From Candidatus Micrarchaeota archaeon (GTDB lineage: Archaea > Micrarchaeota > Micrarchaeia > Anstonellales > Bilamarchaeaceae), in NCBI GenBank assembly GCA_040754495.1, contig JBFMCO010000022.1, forward strand, positions 18,233 through 82,232: 64,000 bases of DNA. Direction: 5' to 3'. Made by a program: the position numbers and the translations under genes. This document shows positions 541 through 23,577 of the stretch, piece by piece (the stretch's first letter is position 1; every line of letters starts with the position of its first letter). Under the pieces are notes generated by a model, which was given only the letters and a program-made list of their open reading frames with translations, was not told where the DNA came from and made no database searches.

Positions 541-541
541 T

Positions 542-1545: not shown

Positions 1546-1616
1546 ATCGACCGGCGGTTCGCTAGCCATAAAAAGCGTCTCCTGCATATCCATTCGCCGC
1601 TCCGGGTGCGAACTAC

Positions 1617-1946
1617 ATGGCGAAGGAAAAAATCGACTGGTCACAGCCCCCCAACCCGTCACTGCCGTTTATCAGCCCGGAGAACATAGGCGAGGTCGAG
1701 AAGGAGGCGCTGGCGATGGCCAACAAGGCTATTTCTCTCCTTGAGCAGGCGATAGCAGCCTGGGACAACGCTAAGGACAAGCCGCCTGAGCTGAAAGGGA
1801 CGATTCAGAGGTACAGGCGGTTCCACGAGGCGCTGAGCGACTGGGAGAAAAGGATGCTGCAGTCCCTGGGGAAGGCGGATTTCAATGCCCGGGTGAGGAT
1901 GCTCGAGGAGTTCGTGAGGATAAGCAGGGCATACGAGGGTAACTGA
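1617..1946 (+). CDS. small helical hypothetical protein (109 aa), translationally coupled to the giant ORF
   Basis: ORF track. Its TGA stop (1944-1946) shares one base with the ATG (1946-1948) of the giant ORF (TGATG). Confidence 0.55.
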   Translation: MAKEKIDWSQPPNPSLPFISPENIGEVEKEALAMANKAISLLEQAIAAWDNAKDKPPELKGTIQRYRRFHEALSDWEKRMLQSLGKADFNARVRMLEEFVRISRAYEGN

Positions 1947-7900: not shown

Positions 7901-10900
7901 GACCCGTACAAGTATACGTACGGGTGGGCCAAGCAGCAGATGGAGAACGACCAGGACGTCAACCTTGGCAATCCGGCGAGGCCGGACTATGTGAAAGACC
8001 CCCAGCAGAGCTGGGCTTACTATAATTACAGCCCCATCACCGAGTACGGCGCCGACTTCATGGGCTACGAGGAGCTTGGAGGGCGGCTATGGAACTCGGT
8101 CCTTGAGGGAGATGGCAGGAAAGTCCAAAGATACCAGAAGCAGATGCTGGTGATGGAAGCCTCGGTTTTCTATATCCCGGTAGATACCTTCATAGACGGG
8201 ATAAACTCCAAGATTACATACAAGGACTGGCAAAAGAGGATACACTTCCAAGCCATGTATAACGGCGACCTCGCGTATGATGAGCTGTTTGGCGACTGGG
8301 GGCTCATGGACGCGAGGACCGGGGCCAAAATCGCAGAAGGCGTCGGGATGTTTGCGCTCTCCATCGCCACGATGGGCCTCGGGAGCGTTGGTTTCGTCGT
8401 GGGCGGGGGGAAGATGCTATGGGATGCCATAGACGGGATACAGAAGGACCTCGCCAAGTACGGCGAGGTAACCACCATGTCCTGGGTCAACCTCGGCCTC
8501 ACGGTCGTGGGACTCGGAGCGAGCGCAGCAGCAGGCAGGCTGGTGAAGGCGTCCCAGACGGCGATTGAAGCCGCAAAGCTTGGCGATGCTGCTAAATTCA
8601 CCACGCAGGTGGCGCGCGCCGGGAGGTTCGCGACCGCGGCGAGGGTCGTCGCCTACACCGATATAACCGTCAACGTAATCGGCATGGTGCCGCAGTTCTA
8701 TTACGGAATCAAGCTCATGGCGGAAGGGAAATACGCCGAAGGCACGCAACAGCTCGCTTTCGGCGCATTCTCGGCCTTCATGGCGTACCATGGCGGTGTG
8801 CAGCAGCTACGCGGCATGAGGGGCCTGAAGACGGAAATCGCGAAGATGGGGGCGCTGAGAGAGGCGCATGCCAAGGCCCCAGAGGTCTTTGCAAGCCTCT
8901 CTACTCCGGAGGGGATGTTCTCGTTCCTGCAGCGCGTCCGGGCGAGGGACCCGGTCTCGCTCGTCATCTATGACAACCTGCCGAAGCCCCAGCGCATACT
9001 TTTCGACGGGATGCTCGCTGACCGGAACGTCGTTTCCGCGCTCAAGAAAAACGATATCGGCTTGGCTAGGGGCGCCTTCGACAGCGGGCTCGAAACATTT
9101 AAGCAGCTATCCGACCTTGGCGGAACAAGGGCGCTCACGGACGCGGCGCATCTTGGCACGCAGGCCGGCCTCGAGCCGTTCATGAGAGACCTCCTGATAC
9201 CTGAAAGCGCGACCGGCCCGCAGCGCACGCGGAGGGACGCGGCGTATGCGAGGCTGGGGGAGATGAAGAAGCGGCCCGAGACCGCAGAGGCCGCGGCCAC
9301 CATAGAGACGCTGCTCAAGGACAAGGACGTGCAGAAAGGGAACGAAACAGGGGTTCTGAAGATAGGGTGGGCTGCCGACGAGATACGGAGCCAGCAGATG
9401 CAGACGATTAACAGATATACCGATTCAGTCGTGAGCGGCGAGCAGGCCCGCCTCGGATTATATTCGAGCGAAGGCGAAGCCGCGCGCGCGAACGCGAAAA
9501 GGATAGGGGATTCCTACCTTGCATATGCCAGGGCGAGGAGCGAGGGGAAGCCGTTCGACTGGGATTATCACGCAAAACGGATGGGCATGGGGCCGGAGGA
9601 TGCCAAAAAGCTGTTTGCGAAGCTGGATGCCGTGCCGGACGCGAGGACGGTAGCGGGAGTGATATCCAGGGAGGGCGTCCGCCAGGCAGTCCGGAATAGG
9701 GTGGCCCTTGACGGGCGCGCGATACTCGGGGACACGCCGCTTACCGAGCTCGCCGGCGAAGGGGCGCTGTTCTCAAGGTGGGGCGAACTCACCCCTGAAG
9801 ACCTTTTCGGCATGGCGCTAAACAGGAGGGAGAGGGCTGCAGAGGAACTCGAAGGGGCGGGCAGGGAAACGGATGGGAGGCTGGCCGCGGCAAAGAGGGA
9901 ACGGGCGACCGCCCTCTCGCGCGAGGCCGATGCCCTAGATGCAGAGGTAAAAAGGCGGCAGGCGCCCGAGGAGGTATTGACGCCCGATTCACTCCGCAGC
10001 GGCGCAAAGGAGAAGTTCGGGCGGGCCCAGCGCCTGCGCAGCGAGGGAAGGGACGAGGAGGCATTCGCGCTTGAGAGCGAAGCGAGGCGGAGCATAGCGC
10101 TCGCGGCAGACCTGGAGAAGTTCGGCGAATACGGCATCGTCCGTGCGACCCCGGACGGGCAGTTCATACACAGGGATTTCCCTGACAGGAGATTCACAAG
10201 GGCGGAGCTGGATGACGCTGCCATACTCGTGAGGGCCATCAGGAAGAGGGGCGTCCCGACCGACAAGCGCCTTCTGGCCATATACGACGCGCTGCCGAAA
10301 GAGGTCAAGAAGGATTACCGGGGCGGCGAGGACGCCCTGATGAAGTCCGTGCTCGATGTAATCTATTCACGGAGGGGGCAGGCGGCCGAGGCGGCGGCTC
10401 CGGTGCTCCGCTCCGAGGAGCTGCCGGTCCCCTCAGACCCGGCCCTTGCCGCAGTGGCCGGCATGACGGTGCCCGGGACGAACCTCAGGTGGGGAGTGAT
10501 ACCTCCGGACCAGGTGCTTCAGTGGCAGGCGAAGGTCTATGAGGCTTACAAGGCCGCGTACGGGAAAATCGGCCTCATCTACGACAGCCCGGAGGCGATG
10601 TTCGCGAAGAACCCAGAAGTCCTGGTCGCGACGGACGGCGAGGGGAGGATTGTCGCATTCACGATTCTGAAAAAGACCGCTTTCGGGACGAAGCTGTCCC
10701 TTGTCGGGGCGGTGCCTGACATCCCCGAGGGAAGGGCTGCCGCAAGGGCAATGATACAGGGCTTTCCAGCTCTCGAGGGTGCCTATATCACGGCACCGGG
10801 TGCTCCTGCGCATCTTGCAATCAAGGCCGGAGTGCCGGTCGTCCCTTACGATTCGGCAAGAATCATCCAGGGCGAGGTTCCGGCCGAGGCCGGAAGCCCG

Positions 10901-13900
10901 GGCGCGTACCAGAACGGGGAGGGGAAGTGGGTCCGCCAGGAGGCGCAGCGCGGGGACGGTCCTGAAGGCATGGCTGCCATTAGCAGGATGCCAGGGTTCG
11001 CGGACTCGGAGCTCGTGAAGCACGCCATAGCGCAGGACGGGGTGAAGCCCGGCGCGAAGCCCGAGGAGCTCACCTGGAACGACTTGGTTGAGCAGGCGGT
11101 GAAGATGGGCGAGCTTCCGGACAGGCCGGAAGTCAGGCAGAACGCGTTCGCGGTGCCTATGGTGATAAACGGGAAGCCCGAAATCGTGGTCAAGGTCATG
11201 TTCGGCAAGCCGCCGGCAGACGCGCTCGAGGTGCGCTCGGTCCTGCAATCAAGGGGAATTGGCGGGCAGGTAGCCGCGGATGCAATAAACCTTTACAAGA
11301 TTTTCAATGGCGAGCAGGTGCCGCTCGAAGTCGCATCAAGATACATGGACGTCACGCTGCATGACCAGTACACGCGCATAAAGCAGGAGAAGATTGCCTC
11401 TGGGATGCCAGAGACGAAAGCCGATGCCGAGGCCCTCGTGGAGGTAGCCAAAAGCATGGCGCCCCGCGCCGGAGAGGGCGGGTTGGAAGCGGGCGGCCCG
11501 ATATCTCAGGAGGGGGTGGAGCTCCTCAGGATGGCCGAGGGGAAGCTCGACCTCGTGGAGGGGCTGACCGGGGCGGATGTCGCGAAGGCGACACTGGACT
11601 GGAGCCAGCCCAGGCTGGAGATGCTCAGGATTCTTACTGTTGAGGGAAGCCCGTACCGGGAGCGGTTCCTCGCAGCGGACCCGGCCGAGCGCGCGGTCAT
11701 CGCGGACGCGATTGCAAGGGGCGCGACACCGGAGCGCGCGTTCCTCAAGGCGGCCGAGGGCATGGTGCCTGCGGATGGCCGAAAACTGCTTGAGGTGGGA
11801 GAGCGGCTGAAGGGGCTTCCCGAAGCAGAGAGGAATCTCAGGTTAAGAGACCTTGAATCGCTGAATCCGGCCCTCGGAAGGATGCTTAAGAGGCTGGCGG
11901 ACCCTGCGACTCCGGAAACTGTGAAACAGGAGATTGCGGCCGAATGGGATTCGGCTGTTGCGGGCGCAGAGAGGCATAAGCGGGTCAATGAGGCGAGAGC
12001 GGCGCGGGACGCTGCGCAGCTTGCTGAGCAGGAGCTCGCCCTGCTGAAAGGGACGCCGGACGAGCAGGCCGCAGGACGCGTGCCGGCATGGATAGAGTCG
12101 GCCGCGAAGGCAAGGGGAAAGGACCCCGCGGCGCTCCATGAGGCGCTCGTGAAGGCATACGGAGAAGGCGGAACCGAAGGCAGGCTCAGGGTGCTTAACG
12201 AGCTGGGCGCGCTCGGCGGGATGCCTGAGGGGGTGCGCTCCACCTTCGTGCAGAACAGCCCGGAGTTCTTCGAGCTCATAGTGCGGGGCGGCCTTGAAGG
12301 CCGCGTGGCGGCGATGCCTGGATTCGAGGGCGGGATCATAGTCAATGCGGAGAAGCTCGAGGGGCTTCGCGGGGCGTACAAAATCGACGTGGAGATGCCG
12401 GACGGGTCAAAGCGCTCGCTGTTCGTGAAGGCCGAAGACCTGGTGCCGGCGCAGCTTGGAAGCGAGCTTGCCGGGGGGCATGGGCTTCTTCCGCCCGTGA
12501 TACACGCGGCCGACGGACAGGGCATGCCCTTCACCTATGATACGGGGATAAGATACACGGACCCCGTCTCAGGGCAGGAGACGGCGCACATGCAGGAGTT
12601 CGGCATAATGGAGGACGTCCATGATTATGCGACAGCCAGGCACAGCGACGTCATCATGCTTCCGGACGGCAGGAGCGCGCAGGTTACCGTGGAGAGCGTG
12701 GCGGTCGTCTCCAGGGAGGTGTTCGCGGACCCGGCGAGGATGCAGGCGATACTAGCGGACGAGCATCATCCCGCGCACAAGGTTGTCAAGGCGTTCTGGG
12801 AGCTTGCAAAAACAGAGGAGGGAAGGCAAAGGATTTTCCAGGCATGGCGGGCCTATCACGAGCTCTCGAGGAGGGCCATGCTCCTCGACCGGTTCGACAG
12901 GAACACGGTGGCAGTGCTCGTCACCACCCCGGAGGGAGAAAGCGTCCTCACGTTCCAGCCCATCGACATGGACTATGTGGCGGGAAAGATAGGCTCGGAC
13001 GGCGACCTTCGGTTCTTCAATGACGACTTCGCGTCAGCGAGCGTGGATTTTGCTACGAAGATTGCGGGGGCTGCGGGGGTTCCCGCAGAGACCGTCCTGG
13101 GAGAGATGGCGAAGGCGTACGGCTCTGACAGTGTGTTCCCGCGCGAAGCCGCGGACGAGAGGGCGGCCGCAGCGGCCTCGGTGCGCGCCACGCTGAACAA
13201 ATACGACGGCAAGCCTTTCGGGGCCGGCTACGACGTCGAGGACTACGGCAAGACGATTGGAAAGGATTACGTCGAATACGGCGGCAGGGACAGGATAGTC
13301 GGCCGGAGGGACGGCCGCGCGATTCTGCACGCCGGCGACATCACCCCGCTCGGCGAGCGGATAGGCGGGGCCGAGGCTGAGGCCGATTTCAGCAGGTTCA
13401 ATCGGGAGAAGTTCGAGAGGATGGCAAAGCCGCTCGAAGAAGCGGCTCCGCCTCCGGCAGTGGAAGCGCAGCCGCCCGCCGGAGAGAAGACTCCGCCCGG
13501 AAAGCGCGGTGCCGGCAACGTAACGCCGCCGGCAAGGCCGGGTGCGATGCGGGGCGCGCCTGCAGGCGGGCCGAGAACCGTGCCGGGCAAACGGGGGGCC
13601 GGAGGCGGGGAGCCGGTTGCAGCGCCGGGCGGAAGGAGGAAGGTGGCAATCGGAGGCGGGGAGGTGGAGCTCGAGCCTGCGCCGGAAAGGGCTCCGGAGC
13701 TCGCCGCGATGAAGATAAGCGAGGACGAGCTTTCGCAGCTCGGCGTCTCATACCAGGGCCTTTATCAGGACGGCGCAGGGAGGAGGCTGAACGTATTCGA
13801 AACGGAGGCCGGGGGGGAGAGGAGGCTTGTCGCCATCCCGGCAGACCTCAGCGGGAAGGCGATGCTCGATGCAATCGGGGCCGAGGTGCGCGCCCTGGGA

Positions 13901-16900
13901 AGGCCGACGGAACTGCCGCCGGAGCTGCGCGGCATGCCGCCGGACGTTTCGTCCCAGGTCGGGATGGACGGGGCGCCAAAGGCAAGGCTGCTCTCGTCCG
14001 AGCCCCTGGGGCGCGGCTCGAGCGCGGACGTGTATCTTGCGGAAATGGTGATTGACGGAAGGCCGACCCGCGTCGCGGTGAAGATATACAAGAACCCGGA
14101 GGGAAACGGGACGTGGCAGGAGCGGGCAGAATATTTCGCGGACGAGGTGAGGAAAGCGAAGATCCTGGGCGATGCAGGCCTCGGCCCGAAGGTGTTCGGG
14201 ATTGCCGATGCGGGCGGGAACATGGCTTTCGCGATGGAGGTCATCGAAGGCAAGCCGATGTACATAGACGAGATGGCGCCCGGGCTCCGCGCGAAATACA
14301 TCAATGAGGACACGTTCGCGCAGGTCCGGAAAATGTATGACGAGCTGATAGCCCACGGATACGAAATCGGCGATTTCGATTTCATGATATTGACCGAAGG
14401 GCCGAATGCCGGCAGGGTTGTGTTCCTGGACGCCGGGGCGCTGCGGGAGGTGCCGCGCGGCGCCCAGGGCGAGCCACGGCCAAGGTACGGCGACGGCGCG
14501 AAGAGGGCGGAGGGCGGGAGGCTTCAGGCTGAGGCCATGACCGCCATGGAATATTTCACGAAGATGGACCGCGACGAGCTTGCCGCGGTAGCCGAGGTCT
14601 CGAAGGGCCTGCTCGGACAGGGCCATGTGGATTCGGACACCATGCGCCTGCTTGCGGTAAGATGGGGGAGCCGCGAGGGAAGGGCCAGGGCGATAGGAGA
14701 GTATATCACCAGTATCGCAGGGGCCGATGAGCAGAAGGCAAAGGCCACGTTCGACGCGCTGAAACGCATCGAGGCGGAAACCGGCATACGGCTGCTGCCG
14801 GATGGCGCGAGGTTCGAGGACCTTGCAGCCAGGGCGGGGGAGGGCGAGATATCGGAGGCGGAAATCATCGCGCCGATGTCAGGGGACGATTACCATGCCG
14901 CGCTCGCAGGGATGCGCACGCAGGCAGCACGCGAAAGCGTAGCGCTCCACTTCAGCGGAAGGGGCGAAATCCCGGACGCGGCCACCTTCGAAAATGCTGC
15001 CATACTGGCCGATGAGGCGGCAGGCGCGAAGGTGCCGGAGCAGGGCCAGGCCGAGCTGTCCGTATATTATGATGGGAACGGCAGGATAATCGGCATAGCG
15101 GATAACGAGCGGCTCTTCTACGGCGACCCCAAGGCGATAAATGACAAGACGCCGGAGGCGAAGGTCAGGGTGGACCTGGAGAGCGGCAGGATAGTCTCCA
15201 TGGACGAGCGCGGCATGAAGAACCCGCTCCTTGCGGACCTGGTAGGGCTGAGGATACTTCCGGGCAAGGGAGCGGAGGGCGCAGGGCCCGGCGGAAGGGG
15301 CCCGCCACCGTTGCCCCCGATGAAAGTGCTTGACGAAGGCAGCATAGTTTCGGCTTATGCAAGCGGGACAGGGCAGGCGCAGAGGACGAGGGCCGCCCGG
15401 TCGTTCGTGATGCTCGATGGCGAGGGGCAGGGGAGGGTGATATCGGAGCTGCGCTCCCAGGGCCGCCATGAAGAGGCCAGGCATCTTACCGAGCTGCAGG
15501 CGATAGGTGGGGAAGCCGGCGCAGGCATCGAAAGGGTTTACGGAATCCCGAGGGACGAGATTATCACGATATACGCGCGGGAGCCGACAGCCCAGGGCGC
15601 GAGGAAGGCGCTCGCGGAGAGGCTCGGCATCGTCATCCTGCCTTTCGAATGGGAGCATTATCCTGCGGACAGGAGGCAGTGGGTGTCCGTCCCGTACCGG
15701 GATTTCAGGTCTTTCGAGGACGACCACTTCCTCTTCGGGCTCATTACCTCAGGGAACATGATTGACACGGTCTCGCAGATGTATCCGGGAGGGAGGATAG
15801 CCTCCATAGAATACCATAACGGGGCGATAGGCGCTTACGAGGTCGCCATCAGGACGCAAAACGGGGAGACGCGCACCGTTTTCGTGAAGAGGCAGGATTT
15901 GCGCCCGGATGCGGCCGGCTCGGACTACTCGGTCCGCTCAGGCGTCCCGGCTCCTGAGGTCATCACCAGCGCCGGAGGCAGGGAGCTTACTTACGTCGGC
16001 CCGGACGGGGAGGTCTCGCGCTACGGCATTATAACCAACATGAGGGATTTCGGGGGGATGATGAGGTTCGGGGGAGTCGAGGCGCAGGTCAGGGCTACGG
16101 ACGAGACCGCGCTGTGGGACCTCGACAGGAGCCCCCTTGCCGGCTCGCTCATGTCTCAGGACCCGCAGGTGAGGGCGAAATTCTGGGAGGAGCTCGGCTA
16201 CATGCTGGCAGGCTCTTACGCGACCGGGATATGGGACAGGCATGCGGGAAACGCGCGCGCGATGGTCCTCGAGGTGCAGAACGCGGACGCGCACACGAAC
16301 CCCGCGGACCAATCATCACCGACAGTGGGCGAGGCGCTGTCGCAGAAGGGCTACTGGGTGTGGCAGCAGGACGGAAAGACGTACATGTTCATGATAGGCG
16401 GCATAGACACCGACACCGCGGCCAACTACCTTGCCGGCGAGGCGCACGGCAGCTTCGACATGACCGGCATGAACATAAGGTACGGCTATGTCGACCTCCA
16501 CAGCCTCTTTAACAGGCTAGCGACGATAAGAGGCACGAGCGTGGATGCGCTCGTCATGGAAGCCTTCGGCGATGTCAGCGGCGGTCAGGTGCCCGGCCCG
16601 GTCGCGATGGGCATGAAGAGGTGGTGGCGCGACTTCGGGAGCGACCCGCACTATGCCGATGAGATGGCCGGCCGGTTCTCCAGCCACGAAGGCGAGAGCA
16701 TAGGCTTCGGATACCCCAGGACCGAGCAGGAGCTGGACGTGATAAGGCAGGGGGGCGTGCTCCATCAGGAGAATCCGCAGAACGGCGACCCTTACACCAT
16801 CATCGCCTTCGCTGACGGCAGGTCTCGGATGAGGCCGGAATACGAGATAGTGCACCGTGAGGACATCGAAGCCCTCGACCCGCGCATAGCCGCGATGTTC

Positions 16901-19900
16901 CCTCCAGGGAGGGACATGTACGCCGTGGAGATAACCGGCGAGGTGCGGAAGGCCGTTCCGGACATAGACAAGAGGACGAACCGCATCCGGACCTCGGACG
17001 GCAGGATGGTCGCGATAATAGACTCGGCCGACCCGCTCGCGAAAACGCTGCTCGACGGGGGAATTCCTATGGTGAAGGCGAGGCGCGACATGCCCCGGCA
17101 GGGAGAAGTTGCCGTGGATGATGCGACCGGCATAATACGGGCCGCTCCAGGGTTCGGAAAGCTGACCGGAATCCAGGCCTACCAGGCCGGCCCGGTTCCG
17201 GTTTTCCGGGCGATGATGGGGGCAGGGGAGGGGTTCATGCTCGGGCAGTTCGCGCACATCGGCCATTATATATTGGCCAAGGAAACGAGCGTGAGGGAAG
17301 CCGCGCAGGTTCCTGCCGGAGTGGTGGCCGGGGAGATAGAAGCGCCGGGAATAGAGCGCATGCCCGCCCCGGCGCAGGTGGAAGGGGTAAGGGGCGGGAT
17401 GAGGGACCTGGTAGGGGCAGTCAGGTCCGGAGACGAGGGCAGGATAAGGGCCGCGGAAGCCGAGTACGATAAGAGGCTCGGAGTGCTGGCCAGGCTAAGG
17501 CCAGATACGGAACTGAGGGTCGTGGAAAACGAGACGCTGTTCGCGGACCTGGCTCCAGGGGGGCAGGCACAAGCGAAGGTGCTCGCGGCAGACTATCTCA
17601 GGAACAGGTCCGCAGGAAAGAAGCTTGACGGCGACCTGCTCGTCATCGACTACCTCGTATCGCATGGAATGAACGCGGTGGATGCGGCTGCGGCAGTCGT
17701 GAATCTGGGGGGCGCCGGGAAGGCGCCTGCCCCTGTGACGCTTCCGCCGTACGTTGCCGAGCACTTCGGGACCAGGCAGCCTGACCCGGTCACGGCTGAA
17801 AACGCGCTGATTCTTGCCGGGGACAGGAATACGCTCGGAAGATTGGGCATACCGGACGGCCTTGGCAGGGTCCTGAAAAGCGAGGGCATGGCTGTCGTGT
17901 CCGAAGGAAAGAGGATGACCGAGGTGAGAGGCTATTACGATCTGGAGAGCGGCAGGATAATATACCTCGGCAGGACGGACGCGCCAAGGGAGGTCACGGC
18001 GGGAGGAGTGGAGTTCGTCCTCCGTTTCGACCATGAGAGCGGGAGGGTATCCATTCCGGAAAGCGAGGACGTGCCGCTTCCGGATTCGATTGCCAGGCTG
18101 AACGGAATGCGCATTGCGCCCCCGCCCCAGGCAGTGCCGTTTGGCGTTTTCGGCATTTTCATGCCACTGTTCAAGTATTTCAGGAAGCCCCCGGCAGCCG
18201 CCCCGCAACCTGAGGCCGTGCCCATCAAGGTCCCGAGGTCCAGGAACGACATCCAGGGAAGGGCCGAGGGCATAAGGGGGCTGCCCCCGGACCAGCAGGC
18301 GCAGGAGCTTGCGGGGCTGCACGATGCCGTGGCCGCCGAGCATGGCGACGTTTATGCGAGGAATTACCGCGACATGATGGAGGAGCTGGTGAAGCATCCG
18401 GAGCATTCGGGCAGGATTCTCGACGAGTGGGAGGCGGTGAGGGCCGAGGAGAAGCATTACGAGGCGCTCGAGAGGGCGAGGAGGTATGCCTTCTCGGCCG
18501 CAGAGGGGTTCGGGATTGTCAGGGGGCAGGACAGGAAGCTCATATCAGGCGGAGAGTACGCGGCGGACATGGCACGCTCGAGGGGCGAGAAGCCCAAGGC
18601 ATTCCGGAAACGGCTCCTCGAAGCGTATGATGCCGGGTTCAGGAGAGGAGGCGTGCTCGATGCGAGGCTCGGCGTGGCAAATTCGCTGGGTGTGCTCGAC
18701 AATATAGTGGTAGAGTCGCGGCCGGGCGTCTTGGACGAAAAGAGGACGATGCAGGCGAGGAAGGAATTCATCAGGAAGAACCCGGAGTTCTTCGACCTAA
18801 TCATGAGGGGCGGACTCGAGGAGGTCATCTCCGCGAACCTCGGGGCCGGCGACGTGAGAATCGCAGGAGTCTCGCACGCGGGCGGCATGGCGCGGGGCGC
18901 GTACGGCGTGGAGGTCCTCCTTCCGGACGGCAGGAGGAAGCGCGTGTTCGTGAAGCTGGAGGACCTCGGGCCTGCCGCGTTCGGGGCTGATTTGGCCAGA
19001 GTCGAGGGCATGATTGCGCCGAAAGTCTTCACTGCGGATTCGCAGGGAAGGCCGCTCTCGTATGACGTGAGCTACAAGGACCCCATCGGAAAGAGGATGG
19101 TGAGCGGCCAGAGGCGCTTTGGCATCATGCTGGATGTCCGCGACACGGTAGGGCAGAAGGCCAGGGTGAGGACCGCGGACGGGAGGTTCAGGGAGATAAC
19201 GGTCACGAGCGTGGCGCTCGTTGGCGACGACATCTTCAATGCCAGGTCGCTTGACGGGATACCCCAGCCCTCCAGGGCCGCCGCGGAGGACTTCTGGACC
19301 GCAATGGGAAGCGAGGGCGGGCGCGAGGAGATGTTCAGGACGTGGTACGCGTACCAGGAGATGTCAAGGCGGGCCACCCTCAGCGACAGGCACACCGGGA
19401 ATTCGATGTACGTCATCGGCGTGACGTCGGATGGCGAGACCGTGAGGACGTTCCAGCCCATAGACCCGGACGATATCGGAGCCAAGGTCGAGGCCAGGCC
19501 GGAGGGCATGAACTTCAGCGAGTTCAACGATTTTTCCGCGCTCTACACGTCGAATTTCGTGAACGGCCTGTACCTCGCGTCGGATAACGCCGCGAGCCTC
19601 GGCCTGCTCAAATCCCCGATCAACCGCGCGCAAGCGAGCAGGGCAGCATCGAGCGACGCCGCGATGTCAGGGTGGAGGCTTCCGGAAGACCCCGGGTGGG
19701 TGAGGTCCGCGGCTGAGTTCATAATCATGGATTACGATGGCAAGCCGTTCGGCCTCGGAACGGACATGACGATAGGCGGGCACGGCTCGTACATAAAATA
19801 CCATGCCGGCAGGAGGAGGGCGGCAGGCTACGACGGCCGCGTCCGGATGTACTCGGACGAGATGCTGGCGGTTTATCGGGGAGCGCAGGACCCTGCCAAC

Positions 19901-22471
19901 GCGGCGGATGTCGCGCGCAGGGTGGATGAGCGGATGGGCTGGGAGAACGCCGGCCACATGAGGGCGCTTGAGCGGAGGTATCCGGACCTCGGCACCCTGC
20001 CTCCGCACATGCAGGAGTACAGGGAGCCCCTCGAGCGTGCGCGCAGGCGCATAGCGGGCGGCGAGAAGCCCGATGACGTTTACCTTGACGAGTCGAAGAG
20101 GATGCTGAGGGCTAATCCCCGGGAGAGGGCGAAGGCCGAGGACATAATCACGAGGCACGGGAGGGGCGTGGCAGACGCCGAGGTGTCCGCGGTCCTGGAG
20201 TTCCAGAAGAGAAACGGCATCGCGTCTTTCGAAGATGCGGCGTATGCATTCGTGAGACAGCAGGCCGCGCCGAAACCTCCAGCGGAACCGCTGCAGCCAT
20301 CCGAAGCCATTTACCGGAAGCATGAAGCGAATATTTTCGGCCCTGCCCGGGGGCAGCTTGGCAGCGAGCTCCTTGCCAGCCTGAGGGGCGCTGAGGAGAG
20401 GATAGCCGGCATGGTGCCTGAGGGGCCGGAGAGGGAGCGCGCGCTCAAAAGATGGGGCGAGTTTGCAGACCGGGCGCTCTCGCGCATCGCCGATCTCCCG
20501 GCACCCGAGCGCGCGGACGCGCTGGCGCGCTTCATGATAGCGGGCGACTATCTCCTCACAAGGGCGGCTGAGAACCCGGCGCGCACGAAGGCATGGCTCG
20601 ATTTCATCGCCGACAACCCGAACGCCGTCGAATACGCCATGCTCGCCAAACGAGGTCTCGACATAAGGGCGCAGGACATAGTCGTGGCCGAAATCCGCCC
20701 CAGCATCCATGACATGTCTGACAGGAAAGCGCTGAAGAAGGCCCTCGGGAAGAGGGTATCGTTCATGGAGGACGTGATACGCGAGATACCGGAAAGGTGG
20801 TTCATGGAGGCGGGGGTGAGGCGCGATTATATGATGGACCTTGCAGGTTCCGACCCGCTCAGGGCGGCGGCCGAGCTCGACCGCGTCACGATGCCGCACG
20901 GAATCAGTGTTGTGAGGAAGGCAACGGGCGTGTACCTCGCAGAGGTCTCGCACACGTTCTCGCTGCATGGCCAGCCGGACATCCGGGGCCTCGTAATAAC
21001 CGGCGCTTACGGGACGGGCGACATGTTCGACGGCATGACCGCGTATTTCAATCCCCTCAGCGGCAGGATTTTCATGCGCGGGACTGCCCATTTCGCGGAG
21101 GCCGGCATACCGGAATCCGCGCTTCCGGGCATGAAGATGACGTACGTGCATGAGATGCAGCACCTGCTCGACAACGCCGGCGGGTATGTCGCGGCACTCT
21201 CGGCCAGGTCTGCAGGGCGCGGAATGGCCTTCATGCCGGAATACCGCGCCAGGCTCGAGACCACGGCGGTCGCGAGAGAGGTCCTGGAGATGGTTCCCCG
21301 GCTGGGGGGCCGCGGGACCGAGGATGCCATCAACGCAGCCATCAGGAAGGACCCGGAGGAATACAAGCAGGCTTACAGGAAGGCGCTGGACGCCATGCGC
21401 ACAGGCGAGGACGGAAGGCCCGACCCGGACTGGGCGGGCAGGCCGCCCGAGGTTCTGCAGAACCGGCTGAGGAAGCTTATAGACGACGAATACCGGAGCC
21501 TTATGCCGCTGAGCTATACCGAGCTCTACGGGCCGACAACCGCAGGGATCGTCCGCGGGGAGATCACGGTCAGGAAGCCGGCCGCCCCCGAGGCCGTTCC
21601 CTTCAAGCCCGCCGTAGCCGCGGACTCGGCTCCGGGACGCGGGGAGCCGGACCTGCTGCGCTCTGCCAAGTATGAAAATGGAATCCTGACGATAGAGGCG
21701 GATTACCTGGGAGGCGAGCTTGCACATGCGGTGAAGCCGCAATTCGCCGAATCCGCGGTGAATGGCGAGTTCATCCCTTCCGGCGACAGGACAAAGCCGA
21801 GCGGCCTGTGGCTCTCGTGGGGCTCCGGCTGGGATTACTTCACAGGGAGCAACCCCGGCCTGATGTTCAAAGGCACCGTGAAGTTCAGGGCCGAGATGAG
21901 GTCCGGATTGAAGCTCTTCCTGCTTGACGGGCGCGAATCTTTCGATAGCATGATGGCCGAATTCCGGCGGGAAGTTAAGGTCGCCGAGACAACGGGGAGC
22001 GGGTATCCGGATGGCACCTGGCCTGATAACAACTGGGTGTACTACGAGAAGAGCCCATGGCAGTGGCTTAGGGAAAGGGGCTATGACGGCGTGGCCGTGA
22101 CGGAGGAGGGATATCTGGATACCAATTTCCAGTTCGGCTGGGACGCGGCCTCCATAGTCATTTTCGAGCCTGCGGGCAATGTGCGCCTGCCTGGAGGCGA
22201 AGCCAGGCTGGAGGAGTACAGGAAGGGTGCCCAGGGCAGCGCGGACGCCATGCTGCCCCTTATTGAAGAGGCAGGCCTGCCGTTATTCGGCCCGAATAAG
22301 GCGTATGACCTCATAGAGGCGTACGCCGGCGGCAGGGCTGAGCGCAGCCCGGGAAAGCGCATCGATGCCGAGGATGAGGCTTTCCTTAAAAAGCTCCTGG
22401 ACGAGAAACCGGGCCTTGAAGAGGCTGCGAAAAGGATTATCGAATACGTTAGAAAGAGGGAAGGGGGATAG
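1946..22471 (+). CDS. giant multidomain protein, 6,841 aa (repetitive helical region, hydrophobic cluster, 3 atypical kinase-like modules, 1 ePK/RIO-like module, HExxH site, unassigned C-terminal domain)
   Basis: Single uninterrupted ORF in the track. Competing ORFs inside it are antisense or off-frame, low-complexity Arg/Pro/Ser/Ala-rich shadows. Several catalytic-type motifs are conserved (see sub-features). Confidence 0.85.
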   Translation: MGQKPAERQPEVRDEGVRVAQPQVPMVPREQPRGGANEAAANAATGLGVMGKFAAVLDFIIADPSRAEGRLAEFSRRLEPYRADYPEETRIALGLFGAASRMYREAQDARAHGDTQRAQELEDSARAHFREGMAKAGSVPGMAQDIHSLAGAGASPEWIESRKAAFNDVGLGTWNRAIAIDQAVEWRVKNDAIIDAGGPAAREAEARMRDEAVRLAEGSRQGQAFSEQDYQDTMRRFSEASAPVTALAAHIHGAAALFHQAAMRQGVSEQYTKAMEDLKKEFDKLLKKLEEGTATKEDVEKAKELADAVKAAETDLEGLSGDDAVTVSGIHARGLSALRQGKGEMARVQRQLAREYAKTKDPGMRKKLERWSADLAKGKAPEAELERWLEAQRPAEFRALTTENIKRETAERAGLLREKGYERSHPRETKRIAELDREAAKALEEAKALRKRGDLDGAGKLEAKAFRLLREARAKVLWLERLDRFQARLAGIKEPPEMKKAAEEVSKALGGAFNFIGTQDGWRARLAFIAADVFIRYGKVLQSKPAAPLLKGILSIVGILSDPRKKVDEKRAQEEVGRLEPKALSAELGGLKGKVDDKAHSKLTDAVKAASGFIGTNQQWRAAYLLRGVKFFLDNREKIGTRGKLFEGIMGFLGRLADPKGEIGEEEAKREFARITGIPAEAPAQAGGRREAALTVAGLKQAGEGFEKRLRAIPGHEEQVRSITETVKLAGEEFRAGNVKKAQELLALAEKKAAALEGVVEREKRIDASGAPEEAREKLKKAGLAAFNDLGKQSGGRFDTVVKATDLFLGGMERKLWLQPGGETAALKLLDFIGRLGEGALQGLEFDSQAAESELSDISAQAGELWKAMLGASITEWLRLIEGWRTMGGLGTANAKFLDDLAESYRALQKRLEEGAKAEDIEQEASALEARAEHAKKIGEELEERERAVAVFRGDVEDFKADTAAFRASERFKKYAADAEPYVKKAEEWEEKAATFMAEAEKLEGDAKAEMIKRAADAVKRSEELLGHAGKIIGLREAGASDEVVSAYRKAANSYIAVFEPAPPGLAGEAQIFPDDVLAYAAIVFSAADSYLFFRKHGRAEAEKRAERLVLGTTFASRIADAEAELRGLDGEMEYAEAIDSDTAARKQKLMDSATELRGDKRKVPKPREGSAEWYGQMALDALERGDFAVADLAVYRGMFEKVAPGGGRNYVPEDIERDISAVLRGEKVPAAGELDRYLTLIDSASLTAQADLLKRDNPVSGSAEERERKQRVHKLAEEIKRRADAHDFAGAERLLEMATVYTGLARDKKWKAFAGADRMEAALDAELAGGDHSGEFQAAVVYQKASEETASFRASLADWGAGLAENKKLVERGLLRVEQLVSEGKTEEAGALFGQLMLYAGAVRTFAAPKKRDVIPGFDPAYDSSKLGGMGLALDALIKGEAEVGGKKPEEVFSQSFLETQREYLNKRADAYLRLSEKMPVGAETVGQGLAEVRRRAAEGDFEGALRLLEMAGNYYGEAAPGKQAGWRYRDATRKGPGYERGRQDMLNAISMEIAAKDPADHDEALETFNSGSQRISVAKAAIERYEIVERNIYNALPTAVIDEWDHHGTIALRGEPTPENEEGPVLGRVSMEKIRRYESEHPDDTALGGGLSLKTLLTKMKKAAEEGDDEAFRKYEKAFFSRLYLVAGRILRREQLEENRQEVKKYIEVLEGFTAAITIDQLVPYGWLEGDDERLKKVTALEKQLKNNEISKAEFESKLNVILSERLQMIEQNKFTDKVPGPMRETVRQLAPRAKALLERARGLYGKLEKMDNNSSEFPLEEYKQVVKDLSALTEEYQTQRKISVAYSHIDQQLQMNKSYHEAIAGEGALASDYPDAYGRAVKFLGFSNGHFKKAQELLLKGEFKQAGAEFERGINRREWALMEADPNVLFGQANTYLGNLPISMLTGVPIIPESTTAMDEVSMIKHRPGWGVLKLAARGRGEDPYKYTYGWAKQQMENDQDVNLGNPARPDYVKDPQQSWAYYNYSPITEYGADFMGYEELGGRLWNSVLEGDGRKVQRYQKQMLVMEASVFYIPVDTFIDGINSKITYKDWQKRIHFQAMYNGDLAYDELFGDWGLMDARTGAKIAEGVGMFALSIATMGLGSVGFVVGGGKMLWDAIDGIQKDLAKYGEVTTMSWVNLGLTVVGLGASAAAGRLVKASQTAIEAAKLGDAAKFTTQVARAGRFATAARVVAYTDITVNVIGMVPQFYYGIKLMAEGKYAEGTQQLAFGAFSAFMAYHGGVQQLRGMRGLKTEIAKMGALREAHAKAPEVFASLSTPEGMFSFLQRVRARDPVSLVIYDNLPKPQRILFDGMLADRNVVSALKKNDIGLARGAFDSGLETFKQLSDLGGTRALTDAAHLGTQAGLEPFMRDLLIPESATGPQRTRRDAAYARLGEMKKRPETAEAAATIETLLKDKDVQKGNETGVLKIGWAADEIRSQQMQTINRYTDSVVSGEQARLGLYSSEGEAARANAKRIGDSYLAYARARSEGKPFDWDYHAKRMGMGPEDAKKLFAKLDAVPDARTVAGVISREGVRQAVRNRVALDGRAILGDTPLTELAGEGALFSRWGELTPEDLFGMALNRRERAAEELEGAGRETDGRLAAAKRERATALSREADALDAEVKRRQAPEEVLTPDSLRSGAKEKFGRAQRLRSEGRDEEAFALESEARRSIALAADLEKFGEYGIVRATPDGQFIHRDFPDRRFTRAELDDAAILVRAIRKRGVPTDKRLLAIYDALPKEVKKDYRGGEDALMKSVLDVIYSRRGQAAEAAAPVLRSEELPVPSDPALAAVAGMTVPGTNLRWGVIPPDQVLQWQAKVYEAYKAAYGKIGLIYDSPEAMFAKNPEVLVATDGEGRIVAFTILKKTAFGTKLSLVGAVPDIPEGRAAARAMIQGFPALEGAYITAPGAPAHLAIKAGVPVVPYDSARIIQGEVPAEAGSPGAYQNGEGKWVRQEAQRGDGPEGMAAISRMPGFADSELVKHAIAQDGVKPGAKPEELTWNDLVEQAVKMGELPDRPEVRQNAFAVPMVINGKPEIVVKVMFGKPPADALEVRSVLQSRGIGGQVAADAINLYKIFNGEQVPLEVASRYMDVTLHDQYTRIKQEKIASGMPETKADAEALVEVAKSMAPRAGEGGLEAGGPISQEGVELLRMAEGKLDLVEGLTGADVAKATLDWSQPRLEMLRILTVEGSPYRERFLAADPAERAVIADAIARGATPERAFLKAAEGMVPADGRKLLEVGERLKGLPEAERNLRLRDLESLNPALGRMLKRLADPATPETVKQEIAAEWDSAVAGAERHKRVNEARAARDAAQLAEQELALLKGTPDEQAAGRVPAWIESAAKARGKDPAALHEALVKAYGEGGTEGRLRVLNELGALGGMPEGVRSTFVQNSPEFFELIVRGGLEGRVAAMPGFEGGIIVNAEKLEGLRGAYKIDVEMPDGSKRSLFVKAEDLVPAQLGSELAGGHGLLPPVIHAADGQGMPFTYDTGIRYTDPVSGQETAHMQEFGIMEDVHDYATARHSDVIMLPDGRSAQVTVESVAVVSREVFADPARMQAILADEHHPAHKVVKAFWELAKTEEGRQRIFQAWRAYHELSRRAMLLDRFDRNTVAVLVTTPEGESVLTFQPIDMDYVAGKIGSDGDLRFFNDDFASASVDFATKIAGAAGVPAETVLGEMAKAYGSDSVFPREAADERAAAAASVRATLNKYDGKPFGAGYDVEDYGKTIGKDYVEYGGRDRIVGRRDGRAILHAGDITPLGERIGGAEAEADFSRFNREKFERMAKPLEEAAPPPAVEAQPPAGEKTPPGKRGAGNVTPPARPGAMRGAPAGGPRTVPGKRGAGGGEPVAAPGGRRKVAIGGGEVELEPAPERAPELAAMKISEDELSQLGVSYQGLYQDGAGRRLNVFETEAGGERRLVAIPADLSGKAMLDAIGAEVRALGRPTELPPELRGMPPDVSSQVGMDGAPKARLLSSEPLGRGSSADVYLAEMVIDGRPTRVAVKIYKNPEGNGTWQERAEYFADEVRKAKILGDAGLGPKVFGIADAGGNMAFAMEVIEGKPMYIDEMAPGLRAKYINEDTFAQVRKMYDELIAHGYEIGDFDFMILTEGPNAGRVVFLDAGALREVPRGAQGEPRPRYGDGAKRAEGGRLQAEAMTAMEYFTKMDRDELAAVAEVSKGLLGQGHVDSDTMRLLAVRWGSREGRARAIGEYITSIAGADEQKAKATFDALKRIEAETGIRLLPDGARFEDLAARAGEGEISEAEIIAPMSGDDYHAALAGMRTQAARESVALHFSGRGEIPDAATFENAAILADEAAGAKVPEQGQAELSVYYDGNGRIIGIADNERLFYGDPKAINDKTPEAKVRVDLESGRIVSMDERGMKNPLLADLVGLRILPGKGAEGAGPGGRGPPPLPPMKVLDEGSIVSAYASGTGQAQRTRAARSFVMLDGEGQGRVISELRSQGRHEEARHLTELQAIGGEAGAGIERVYGIPRDEIITIYAREPTAQGARKALAERLGIVILPFEWEHYPADRRQWVSVPYRDFRSFEDDHFLFGLITSGNMIDTVSQMYPGGRIASIEYHNGAIGAYEVAIRTQNGETRTVFVKRQDLRPDAAGSDYSVRSGVPAPEVITSAGGRELTYVGPDGEVSRYGIITNMRDFGGMMRFGGVEAQVRATDETALWDLDRSPLAGSLMSQDPQVRAKFWEELGYMLAGSYATGIWDRHAGNARAMVLEVQNADAHTNPADQSSPTVGEALSQKGYWVWQQDGKTYMFMIGGIDTDTAANYLAGEAHGSFDMTGMNIRYGYVDLHSLFNRLATIRGTSVDALVMEAFGDVSGGQVPGPVAMGMKRWWRDFGSDPHYADEMAGRFSSHEGESIGFGYPRTEQELDVIRQGGVLHQENPQNGDPYTIIAFADGRSRMRPEYEIVHREDIEALDPRIAAMFPPGRDMYAVEITGEVRKAVPDIDKRTNRIRTSDGRMVAIIDSADPLAKTLLDGGIPMVKARRDMPRQGEVAVDDATGIIRAAPGFGKLTGIQAYQAGPVPVFRAMMGAGEGFMLGQFAHIGHYILAKETSVREAAQVPAGVVAGEIEAPGIERMPAPAQVEGVRGGMRDLVGAVRSGDEGRIRAAEAEYDKRLGVLARLRPDTELRVVENETLFADLAPGGQAQAKVLAADYLRNRSAGKKLDGDLLVIDYLVSHGMNAVDAAAAVVNLGGAGKAPAPVTLPPYVAEHFGTRQPDPVTAENALILAGDRNTLGRLGIPDGLGRVLKSEGMAVVSEGKRMTEVRGYYDLESGRIIYLGRTDAPREVTAGGVEFVLRFDHESGRVSIPESEDVPLPDSIARLNGMRIAPPPQAVPFGVFGIFMPLFKYFRKPPAAAPQPEAVPIKVPRSRNDIQGRAEGIRGLPPDQQAQELAGLHDAVAAEHGDVYARNYRDMMEELVKHPEHSGRILDEWEAVRAEEKHYEALERARRYAFSAAEGFGIVRGQDRKLISGGEYAADMARSRGEKPKAFRKRLLEAYDAGFRRGGVLDARLGVANSLGVLDNIVVESRPGVLDEKRTMQARKEFIRKNPEFFDLIMRGGLEEVISANLGAGDVRIAGVSHAGGMARGAYGVEVLLPDGRRKRVFVKLEDLGPAAFGADLARVEGMIAPKVFTADSQGRPLSYDVSYKDPIGKRMVSGQRRFGIMLDVRDTVGQKARVRTADGRFREITVTSVALVGDDIFNARSLDGIPQPSRAAAEDFWTAMGSEGGREEMFRTWYAYQEMSRRATLSDRHTGNSMYVIGVTSDGETVRTFQPIDPDDIGAKVEARPEGMNFSEFNDFSALYTSNFVNGLYLASDNAASLGLLKSPINRAQASRAASSDAAMSGWRLPEDPGWVRSAAEFIIMDYDGKPFGLGTDMTIGGHGSYIKYHAGRRRAAGYDGRVRMYSDEMLAVYRGAQDPANAADVARRVDERMGWENAGHMRALERRYPDLGTLPPHMQEYREPLERARRRIAGGEKPDDVYLDESKRMLRANPRERAKAEDIITRHGRGVADAEVSAVLEFQKRNGIASFEDAAYAFVRQQAAPKPPAEPLQPSEAIYRKHEANIFGPARGQLGSELLASLRGAEERIAGMVPEGPERERALKRWGEFADRALSRIADLPAPERADALARFMIAGDYLLTRAAENPARTKAWLDFIADNPNAVEYAMLAKRGLDIRAQDIVVAEIRPSIHDMSDRKALKKALGKRVSFMEDVIREIPERWFMEAGVRRDYMMDLAGSDPLRAAAELDRVTMPHGISVVRKATGVYLAEVSHTFSLHGQPDIRGLVITGAYGTGDMFDGMTAYFNPLSGRIFMRGTAHFAEAGIPESALPGMKMTYVHEMQHLLDNAGGYVAALSARSAGRGMAFMPEYRARLETTAVAREVLEMVPRLGGRGTEDAINAAIRKDPEEYKQAYRKALDAMRTGEDGRPDPDWAGRPPEVLQNRLRKLIDDEYRSLMPLSYTELYGPTTAGIVRGEITVRKPAAPEAVPFKPAVAADSAPGRGEPDLLRSAKYENGILTIEADYLGGELAHAVKPQFAESAVNGEFIPSGDRTKPSGLWLSWGSGWDYFTGSNPGLMFKGTVKFRAEMRSGLKLFLLDGRESFDSMMAEFRREVKVAETTGSGYPDGTWPDNNWVYYEKSPWQWLRERGYDGVAVTEEGYLDTNFQFGWDAASIVIFEPAGNVRLPGGEARLEEYRKGAQGSADAMLPLIEEAGLPLFGPNKAYDLIEAYAGGRAERSPGKRIDAEDEAFLKKLLDEKPGLEEAAKRIIEYVRKREGG
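8330..8800 (+). other. hydrophobic/Gly-rich cluster (probable membrane-spanning segments) inside giant ORF
   Basis: Translations such as GVGMFALSIATMGLGSVGFVVGGG, WVNLGLTVVGLGASAAAG and LAFGAFSAFMAYHGG. This is the only strongly hydrophobic stretch I saw in the 6,841 aa. Confidence 0.45.
12245..13370 (+). other. atypical kinase-like module A of giant ORF (catalytic-loop His replaced)
   Basis: FVQNSPEFFELIVRGG... SLFVKAEDLVPAQLG (Lys codon 12428-12430) ... LLDRFDRNTV (12887-12904) ... FQPIDMDYV (12962-12973) ... KYDGKPFGAGYD. Collinear with modules B and C. Confidence 0.55.
13970..14470 (+). other. ePK/RIO/Bud32-like small kinase-like module of giant ORF
   Basis: Gly-rich loop LGRGSSADVY (from 14006), VAVKIYK (Lys codon 14081-14083), AHGYEIGDFDFMIL (Asp 14372-14374), VVFLDAGAL (Asp 14429-14431). 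No Asn follows the putative catalytic Asp. Confidence 0.5.
15790..16720 (+). other. atypical kinase-like module B of giant ORF
   Basis: GAYEVAIRTQNGETRTVFVKRQDLRPDAAG (Lys 15887-15889), GIWDRHAGNARAM (16235-16252), MIGGIDTDTA (16400-16414). Confidence 0.55.
18767..19880 (+). other. atypical kinase-like module C of giant ORF
   Basis: FIRKNPEFFDLIMRGG... GAYGVEVLLPDGRRKRVFVKLEDLGPAAFG (Lys 18953-18955), LSDRHTGNSMYV (19385-19402), FQPIDPDDIG (19457-19471), DYDGKPFGLGTD. Confidence 0.55.
21149..21163 (+). other. HExxH motif (HEMQH) in the C-terminal region of giant ORF
   Basis: MKMTYVHEMQHLLDNAG. cat gag atg cag cac lies in the giant-ORF frame. Confidence 0.5.
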
Positions 22472-22489: not shown

Positions 22490-23026
22490 TCAGGGCACGG
22501 CCTGCCCGTTTATCACGAAGCTGAATTTCTGCCTCTCCTTCTCAAGCGCCTTCACGGTTTCCAGAGAGTCCTTCAGCATGCGCAGGAAAGGCTCCCAGGA
22601 GCCGCTGCCGGAATGGATGCTGCGGATGGCCTCGGAAACGACGACCTTCCTTTTCTTGTCCACGAAAGTGCAGTAGATGCTGCTTCCCCGGCGCCTGACA
22701 TCGATGCCGTATTCCGCGAAATCCTCCTCCGGCGGAAGTGTGGCGCCGAGCGCGAGCGCGGATGCGACGGATTCTATCCCCTTCCTCGGCTCGGACGAAT
22801 AGGACTGGACGCCGACGCCGTCCTTGAGATAAAGGCTGTCCGGAATCCTGAGGAGCGGCTCCAGCTCCCGGGGCATCCCGCCGGCGATTTCCGCGAGGGT
22901 GTCCATGAGGCGCTCTTTAGTTGCGCGGTCCCGCAGGAGCGGATCTGCCAGCATCTTCTGGAACCTTTTTTCGCCTATGTCCGTTACGGTTGCTCCGGCC
23001 GTTTTCTTTTTTCTCTTTCCTGCCAT
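22490..23026 (-). CDS. small hypothetical protein, paralog family member 1 (array convergent on giant gene)
   Basis: ORF 22490..23032 (GTG); ATG at 23026 preceded by GGTG. The core IPDSLYL...YGIDVRRRGSSIYCTFVDKKRKVVV...GSWEPFL aligns with the 24133..24663 product. Its stop lies 18 nt from the giant ORF stop. Confidence 0.65.
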   Translation of the reverse strand: MAGKRKKKTAGATVTDIGEKRFQKMLADPLLRDRATKERLMDTLAEIAGGMPRELEPLLRIPDSLYLKDGVGVQSYSSEPRKGIESVASALALGATLPPEEDFAEYGIDVRRRGSSIYCTFVDKKRKVVVSEAIRSIHSGSGSWEPFLRMLKDSLETVKALEKERQKFSFVINGQAVP

Positions 23027-23028
23027 CG

Positions 23029-23577
23029 TCACACCAGGTACATGTCGCCGCAGTCGCTGACCGCTACTCTCCCCGGCTTCGCCTTCGCGGCTGCCTCGGC
23101 GGCCCTTATCGCGCCAGCGACTTCCGCCCAGTCCTTTTTTTGCGGCTTGTCCATATAGCGCATGAGCGGCTCCCTCACCATTATCCTCCGGCCCATGTCC
23201 GCGAGCACGAGATAGACTGTGCTTGTCGTCTCATAGACGGCGATGCCGTATCCCATGTCGGGCTTCCGGTCCATATGGCCGGATGAAAGGAAACGCGCCA
23301 GGACAGCGTTTATCCCGAACCCGGCGTCATCCGAAAGCGTGATTGCATTACCGGCCTCGCGCCGGTAAAGGCGCGCGGGGAGCGCAAGCGCCGCCTTGAC
23401 ATCCTCGCTCCAGTTCTGCGCGTATCCTGCAAGGCCCGAAGCGGCGTCCTCCCGCGACACGGAGGCAGGTGGCGCAGCTTCTGCAAGATGGCCTTCAGTG
23501 GCGCCGGCCTTCGCGATGAACGGCTTTTCCGGCGGAGGCAGGGGCACTGGACCGCGGGCATCCCTTTTCTTTGGCAT
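23029..23577 (-). CDS. small hypothetical protein, paralog family member 2
   Basis: ORF track. LPARLYRRE...GYGIAVYETTSTVYLVLADMGRRIMV is collinear with members 1 and 4. The stop is 2 nt before the next start. Confidence 0.6.
   Translation of the reverse strand: MPKKRDARGPVPLPPPEKPFIAKAGATEGHLAEAAPPASVSREDAASGLAGYAQNWSEDVKAALALPARLYRREAGNAITLSDDAGFGINAVLARFLSSGHMDRKPDMGYGIAVYETTSTVYLVLADMGRRIMVREPLMRYMDKPQKKDWAEVAGAIRAAEAAAKAKPGRVAVSDCGDMYLV

Follow-up and report, generated by a model that had tools for sequence, protein, structure and literature searches.

Three kinase-like modules of two subtypes in a giant protein of a Micrarchaeota archaeon

The giant open reading frame and its three modules

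The window analyzed here is a 64,000-nucleotide (nt) stretch of contig JBFMCO010000022.1 from a Candidatus Micrarchaeota archaeon (assembly GCA_040754495.1, positions 18,233 to 82,232 of the forward strand). Close to its start lies a giant open reading frame (ORF) encoding a protein of 6,841 amino acids (aa), with a short leader ORF directly upstream and an array of small genes on the opposite strand downstream (Table 1). Three segments of the giant protein, modules A, B, and C, are domains of the protein kinase-like (PKL) fold; they belong to two subtypes, and their full set of catalytic residues is strongly conserved.

An initial annotation of the window had described three collinear copies of an atypical kinase-like module in the giant ORF. 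All motif strings quoted there for A, B, and C were located where it had placed them, the Lys-to-Asp spacings of 153, 116, and 144 aa were correct, and the elements NPEFFxLIxRGGLE (aa 3438 and 5612) and YDGKPFG (aa 3753 and 5930) were confirmed in modules A and C. Sliding self-BLAST of the giant protein aligned A (about aa 3396-3682) with C (aa 5552-5848) at 37% identity over ~300 aa (BLASTP E value 9e-54) and B (aa 4596-4725) with both A and C, in its N-terminal part only (E values 3e-9 to 1e-10). When a profile of 31 A/C-type modules was compared by hhalign with a profile of 15 B-type modules, the two aligned over 296 columns (probability 99.7%, E value 2e-26), pairing DRxxxN with DRHxxN, IDxD with IDTD, and YDGKPFG with HEGESIG. 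A four-sequence MAFFT alignment misplaced the DRHAGN of module B, an error that hhalign put right. Judged by these sequence comparisons, the resemblance among the modules is true homology, far above chance. The three copies are thus homologous, as both self-BLAST and hhalign indicate, but they are not equal: A and C represent one subtype (A/C-type), while B represents a second, paralogous one (B-type).

Table 1. Features of the window. Positions are those of the window; residues are those of the giant protein.
Feature	Positions (nt)	Strand	Residues (aa)	Remarks
tRNA-Gly(CCC)	461-540	+		80 nt; ARAGORN call, Rfam silent at gathering score; just upstream of the gene cluster
ORF with HExxH (HETLH)	577-1545	+		322 aa; just upstream of the leader ORF
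Leader ORF	1617-1946	+		109 aa; stop overlaps the start codon (ATG) of the giant gene
Giant ORF	1946-22471	+	1-6841	6,841 codons, from ORF list and translation; carries all modules
Hydrophobic Gly-rich cluster	8324-8875	+	2127-2310	candidate membrane helices: one strong, two to three weaker (Kyte-Doolittle scan)
Module A, A/C-type	12188-13300	+	3415-3785	from HMM envelope, motifs, and 37% identity to C
A, Gly loop EGLRGAY		+	3472-3478	
A, Lys motif SLFVKAEDLVPAQLG	12416-12460	+	3491-3505	Lys3495 at 12428-12430
A, LLDRFDRN		+	3646-3653	DRFDRN aa 3648-3653, at 12887-12904
A, PIDMD		+	3672-3676	IDMD aa 3673-3676, at 12962-12973
Candidate small RIO/Bud32-like domain	13913-14725	+	3990-4260	between A and B; GRGSSADVY...VAVK...GDFDF...FLDAG
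Repeat X, copy 1	14939-15256	+	4332-4437	~130 aa upstream of module B
Module B, B-type	15653-16825	+	4570-4960	
B, Gly loop NGAIGAY		+	4625-4631	
B, Lys motif TVFVKRQDLRPDAAG		+	4644-4658	Lys4648 at 15887-15889
B, IWDRHAGN		+	4762-4769	DRHAGN aa 4764-4769, at 16235-16252
B, GIDTD		+	4819-4823	IDTD aa 4820-4823, at 16403-16414
Repeat X, copy 2	17753-18121	+	5270-5392	~190 aa upstream of module C
Module C, A/C-type	18680-19825	+	5579-5960	
C, Gly loop GGMARGAY		+	5646-5653	
C, Lys motif RVFVKLEDLGPAAFG		+	5666-5680	Lys5670 at 18953-18955
C, LSDRHTGN		+	5812-5819	DRHTGN aa 5814-5819, at 19385-19402
C, PIDPD		+	5838-5842	IDPD aa 5839-5842, at 19460-19471
Conserved C-terminal block	20438-21616	+	6165-6557	48% identical to aa 5257-5644 of homolog P0006
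HEMQH, in C-terminal block	21149-21163	+	6402-6406	
S1 small partner gene	22490-23032	-		180 aa; convergent with the giant gene
S2 small partner gene	23029-23577	-		182 aa
S1 small partner gene	24133-24663	-		176 aa
DNA polymerase D large subunit (DP2)	31778-36658	-		split by an intein that carries a LAGLIDADG homing-endonuclease domain
Partial tRNA match	42984-43041	-		Rfam match; no ARAGORN call

With module C as the query, 1.84 billion representative proteins were searched exhaustively; 56 were recovered, most of them 3,000-7,300 aa long, and our tally of modules stands at 69 copies in 57 proteins (53 A/C-type and 16 B-type). The Lys, the Asp and Asn of the catalytic loop, and the IDxD motif, whose conservation among homologs the initial annotation had put forward as a test, form the conserved core of these 69 copies. 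Among A/C-type modules the catalytic Asp, the Asn, and the metal-binding Asp are each present in 53/53 copies, the second Asp in 50/53, the Arg that follows the catalytic Asp in 51/53, the Lys in 45/51, and the Gly-loop glycine in 51/51. B-type modules retain the Lys, the catalytic Asp, the His, the Asn, and both further Asp residues in 16/16 copies each, and the Arg in 11/16. The two subtypes are therefore reciprocal: the Arg is near-invariant and the His position free in the A/C-type, whereas in the B-type the His is invariant and the Arg position partly free.

The position that holds His in module C and Phe in module A is occupied, across the A/C-type, by Phe (15 copies), Tyr (11), His (10), Arg (9), Ala (5), and Asn, Lys, or Trp (one each). 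Copy A had been suspected of being degenerate or regulatory on account of its Phe. This suspicion was not borne out: Phe is the commonest state of the subtype, the His of module C is a minority state, and 15/15 Phe-bearing copies keep the Lys, the catalytic Asp, the Arg, the Asn, both Asp residues of IDxD, and both Gly-loop glycines. Because every other catalytic residue is retained in all Phe-bearing copies, the Phe would not be expected to inactivate module A, which is predicted to be as competent as the rest of its subtype. The A/C subtype may thus represent a natural experiment on the PI3K-type mechanism, with a catalytic-loop His that appears dispensable or replaceable and strong selection elsewhere.

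Modeled fold and relation to known kinase families

AlphaFold2 (AF2) models of modules B and C were built with family alignments and were confident (B: predicted local distance difference test, pLDDT, 82 and predicted template modeling score, pTM, 0.81; C: pLDDT 89.4 and pTM 0.87). In structure searches, all 60 matches listed for each model were PKL-fold or PKL-related proteins; neighbors of the C model were PI3K-alpha (score 11.4), CotH (11.4), Vps34 (11.2), PI4KIIIbeta (10.5), mTOR (10.4), and SMG1 (10.2). Foldseek against the PDB likewise returned kinases only, though E-values were weak and TM-scores poor. The motif Lys terminates beta3, the third strand of the N-lobe, in both models, and the GxxGAY loop lies between strands 1 and 2; DRxxxN is found in the loop after a long helix (helix E) and before the next strand, and IDxD follows a strand. 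As modeled, the beta3 Lys, the catalytic loop, and the DFG equivalent occupy their canonical positions. The fold is two-lobed, as in kinases of the PKL superfamily, with a beta sheet and helix C in the N-lobe and helix E and the catalytic loop in the C-lobe, and the PKL core residue set (beta3 Lys, catalytic Asp, Asn five residues on, metal-binding Asp, and Gly-rich loop) is present in A, B, and C. A kinase-like fold had been proposed at the outset, with assignment to a non-kinase fold named as the finding that would overturn it. Because the models show the canonical kinase residue arrangement, and match only PKL folds, the proposal stands.

A structural survey of the PKL superfamily grouped PI3K and actin-fragmin kinase (AFK) together and noted that, among PKL structures, only in these two is the catalytic Asp followed directly by an Arg (PKA position 167) that replaces the His/Tyr164 interaction (Scheeff & Bourne 2005, PMC1261164). 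Modules A, B, and C all carry this Arg, as do most members of both subtypes, and PI3K and AFK are the nearest structural neighbors of the models. On the strength of the Arg and of these top neighbors we place the modules, with reservations, structurally closest to the branch that unites PI3K/PI4K/PIKK and AFK. The VFVKxxDLRPD of the modules resembles IFKxGDDLRQD of PI3K/PI4K/PIKK, and the two groups share a DRHxxN loop (modules B and C), the Arg that follows the catalytic Asp, and an I-D ahead of the metal-binding position. AFK of Physarum (PDB 1CJA), with which the modules have the Arg in common, is another close system. The CotH spore-coat kinase (PDB 5JDA) differs in being a bacterial, single-domain protein, and the modules have no CotH match in Pfam; RIO/Bud32 minimal kinases scored lower than PI3K/AFK and differ in catalytic-loop sequence.

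Several results weigh against this placement. No kinase family was matched by Pfam searches of overlapping pieces of the whole giant protein at E ≤ 1, or of 46 individual modules (all members of both alignments) at E ≤ 10, and the PF00454 profile was thus matched by neither. NCBIfam and PADLOC contained nothing relevant, and searching all PDB sequences by phmmer and with profiles by hmmsearch yielded nothing above noise and no PI3K or PI4K chain. Modules B and C carry the His that PI3K/PI4K/PIKK have invariantly; it is absent from A and is not conserved in the A/C subtype. In place of IDFG the modules have IDMD, IDTD, and IDPD, in which the Asp is kept and Phe-Gly, including the DFG glycine, is missing. 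Finally, in six A/C-type copies from other proteins the beta3 Lys is replaced by Ser, Thr, or Asn. The surroundings also differ from those of PI3K/PI4K/PIKK, since the giant protein lacks Pfam-detectable helical/PIK, C2, FAT, and FATC domains and the modules are embedded in very long archaeal proteins.

Hence the PI3K/PI4K-like logic seen by the initial annotation held for the fold, as judged by structural neighbors, and failed for PF00454 membership by sequence. From the models, we conclude that the modules are likely built to work like a PI3K/AFK-type kinase while lying outside the PI3K/PI4K family as now defined; at the sequence level, they constitute a lineage-specific family without a Pfam or NCBIfam model. 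The similarity is at the level of the fold only, and we therefore make no claim about ancestry. If correct, the placement adds an archaeal family to the atypical-kinase branch of eukaryotic lipid kinases and PIKKs, and so bears on the evolution of that branch.

A family of giant proteins and its candidate small partner genes

A word-indexed homolog search gave single fragments only (P0001, P0005, and P0057), and the family was uncovered by the exhaustive search. In species-representative genomes, homologous giant ORFs were present at 20 loci, all in metagenome-assembled genomes (MAGs) labeled Candidatus Micrarchaeota, Micrarchaeia, Bilamarchaeum, or "archaeon". No relatives of the module family were found in viral contigs, and no description of these giant proteins was found in the literature. 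Giant proteins from Micrarchaeota and from unclassified archaeal MAGs were the only ones in which we found the family. When all homologs were scanned with the profiles, each giant protein proved to contain one to three modules. The commonest arrangement is an A/C-type followed by a B-type module; several proteins carry two A/C-type modules, and many carry A/C-type modules only. Triples occur in the giant protein studied here (ac-b-ac), in P0002 (ac-ac-b), and in P0008 (ac-b-b), so that the tandem triplication, which had looked like an oddity of one polypeptide, belongs to a series of arrays that recur in giant Micrarchaeota proteins.

The giant ORF has a coding-like GC content at third codon positions (GC3 = 0.79), and its product contains no Cys but much Ala, Gly, Glu, and Arg. 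Throughout the gene the coding strand is strongly skewed, with G exceeding C and A exceeding T. Long antisense ORFs within it, such as that at 19667-21742 (- strand, 691 aa), were dismissed as high-GC artefacts because they lack coding-like GC3 and GC2 (the corresponding value at second codon positions). The modules are by far the best-conserved part of the giant proteins, and the N-terminal ~3,000 aa have almost no relatives. The Gly-rich cluster at aa 2127-2310, the sole hydrophobic region in a Kyte-Doolittle scan, stands between the N-terminal 2,100 aa, poorly conserved and mostly helical, and an enzyme-bearing C-terminal part of 4,500 aa.

Other conserved elements accompany the modules. 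The two copies of repeat X (~110 aa each) are 31% identical (self-BLAST E values 1.5e-4 to 6e-4); because the repeat precedes both B and C, the duplicated units extend beyond the kinase domains, and self-BLAST found no counterpart upstream of module A. Between A and B, aa 3990-4260 form a possible fourth, minimal kinase-like domain: the region recurs at differing positions in eight other giant homologs, where its Lys, Asp-Phe, and Asp are invariant. It lacks the catalytic-loop Asn and matches the Rio1 profile only at a borderline E value of 0.04. The conserved C-terminal block, which has no Pfam match, contains the sole HExxH of the giant protein by regular-expression search, and could be a metalloprotease-like domain. 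In homolog P0018, a marginal Pfam match to Metallophos (calcineurin-like phosphoesterase) was seen at aa 3758-3881, downstream of the kinase-like module; a phosphatase-type domain may thus accompany the kinase in some family members.

The leader ORF, which has no known domain, is kept at the start of the giant gene wherever that start is visible (homologs lie directly upstream of it in loci L004, L009, and L012, and one is present in L017); it is probably co-transcribed with the giant gene. On the other side, S1 and S2 are paralogous ~180-aa genes of two types, encoded on the strand opposite to the giant gene. Library scans, PADLOC included, found no known domain in their products. Homologs follow directly after the giant gene stop in most loci and were found in L004-L020, L022, and L023.

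In the window, the A/C-type modules and the S1 genes each number two, and the B-type module and the S2 gene are single. Across loci, the number of modules equaled that of small paralogs in 11/15 cases (Spearman 0.65, permutation p 0.009), and S2 genes were present at 7/8 genome loci with a B-type module versus 0/7 without one (Fisher p 0.0014; 9-10/12 versus 0/7 once four metagenome loci are included, Fisher p 0.003 to 0.0007), statistics that ignore shared ancestry and truncated loci. This limit counts against a pairing of modules and small genes, as does the fact that no small partner was seen at the B-containing metagenome loci L021 and L024. As a lead, the co-occurrence suggests one cognate small protein per module type, be it a regulator, a substrate, or an antidote. 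Comparison of coordinates gave no consistent sign that the order of the small genes mirrors or copies that of the modules.

Two further small genes, at 23610-24107 and 24704-25228 (both - strand), interleave the S1/S2 array and have no detectable kinship with S1 or S2. For each, a single homolog was seen at the corresponding position of another locus, L013 for the former and L011 for the latter. The HETLH-containing ORF of 322 aa, which has no Pfam match, also has a single homolog, which in L007 lies beyond the small-gene array.

Predicted activity, alternatives, and genomic setting

We favor, as reasonably probable, the explanation that the modules are catalytic PKL-fold domains of a lineage-specific family whose nearest neighbors in structure are the PI3K/PI4K/PIKK and AFK kinases. 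That each module carries out Mg-ATP-dependent phosphotransfer is rather likely. Each would bind Mg-ATP between its lobes and move the gamma-phosphate onto a hydroxyl, with the catalytic Asp acting as base or orienter and the Asn and the IDxD Asp holding the metals; the candidate acceptors are a protein, a lipid, or a small partner. The conserved core of the giant-protein family would thereby gain a concrete predicted identity, that of two PI3K/AFK-like kinase subtypes with intact catalytic residues, and candidate cognate partner proteins are pointed out.

One competing explanation is that the A/C-type modules, or A alone, are pseudokinases, that is, nucleotide-binding or structural scaffolds that regulate B-type modules or present substrates to them. 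The unconstrained PI3K-type His position fits this explanation, as does the commonest layout, in which an A/C-type module followed by a B-type module could be read as a regulator-enzyme pair. Because six A/C-type copies lack the Lys, some family members may indeed be pseudokinases. However, A, B, and C each retain the Lys, the catalytic Asp, and the metal-binding Asn and Asp, and thus do not show the residue loss that marks pseudokinases. Complete retention of Asp, Asn, and metal-binding Asp across the A/C subtype, with the Arg in all but two copies, would be unusual for pseudokinases; all Phe variants keep the Lys and both glycines; and many family members have only A/C-type modules. Type II PI4-kinases are active although they lack the catalytic-loop His. 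We therefore consider the pseudokinase explanation improbable for the modules described here.

What the giant protein does as a whole can be addressed only speculatively. DPANN archaea, among them Micrarchaeota, depend on hosts, and their giant genes, which are almost entirely unannotated, are prime suspects in attachment to these hosts and their manipulation. The hydrophobic cluster might anchor the giant protein in a membrane, and the protein might serve as a multi-enzyme platform or as an effector in the interaction between Micrarchaeota and host. With S1 accompanying the A/C-type and S2 the B-type, the small protein might control its module or be acted on by it. That the protein is an effector of host interaction, anchored in a membrane and paired with cognate small partners, is, in our view, a long shot. 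The same holds for the most elaborate form of this idea, a lineage-specific class of giant membrane-associated multi-kinase effectors. Proteins of the host or of the interface, or archaeal lipids of the inositol type, would be their phosphorylation targets, and S1 and S2 would restrain the modules, making a kinase-based toxin/effector-immunity system within one polypeptide behind DPANN-host interaction.

A related proposal, which extends the kinase explanation, sees in the giant protein a polymorphic multi-toxin or an effector that enters host or competitor cells by delivery, with toxic modules and small genes encoding immunity proteins, one for each module type. By analogy, MARTX and CDI/Rhs toxins are also long polypeptides with shuffled enzymatic modules, adjoined by small genes that track module types. 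The number and subtype of the small genes here do track those of the modules, domains are shuffled among family members next to a barely conserved N terminus, further putative enzyme blocks occur in the polypeptide (HExxH) and in P0018 (Metallophos), and the lineage is host-dependent. However, the small genes are convergent with the giant gene, whereas immunity genes normally follow the toxin on the same strand, as in the systems named, with which no shared domains were detected. Pfam, NCBIfam, and PADLOC revealed no secretion signal, recognized toxin-delivery domain, or defense-system model, and both the two partnerless loci and the lack of relatives in viral contigs count against a toxin. 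This proposal, too, appears doubtful.

Use of the PKL fold for other ATP chemistry, such as AMPylation (SelO-like), glutamylation, or adenylate-forming ligation of the IucA/IucC type, is less likely still. Lys, DxxxxN, and Asp in canonical order and placement are the phosphotransferase signature of the PKL superfamily (PMC1261164), and the top structural matches are bona fide kinases, with SelO and NIS-synthetase scores no higher. Finally, the lack of any Pfam, NCBIfam, or PDB sequence match might suggest that the modules are not kinase-like and that the motifs only look so, by chance or through the composition of a repetitive giant ORF, yet this is ruled out for practical purposes by hhalign and by the structure searches: the internal homology is significant, 69 copies are conserved in 57 proteins, and two confident AF2 models match only PKL folds.

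The window is archaeal chromosome, with genes for the large subunit of DNA polymerase D, cysteinyl-tRNA synthetase (CysRS), a formyltransferase, and a GMP synthase subunit. No housekeeping synteny was found between the window and the other Micrarchaeota giant-gene loci; the species-representative genomes contained no identical locus, and exact look-up of two window proteins gave no match. An origin in a mobile element or virus was rejected, there being no viral-contig relatives and no second copy of the 3' end of tRNA-Gly, the mark expected of an integration site. The tRNA calls at 461-540 and 42984-43041 may represent intron-containing or split archaeal tRNAs.

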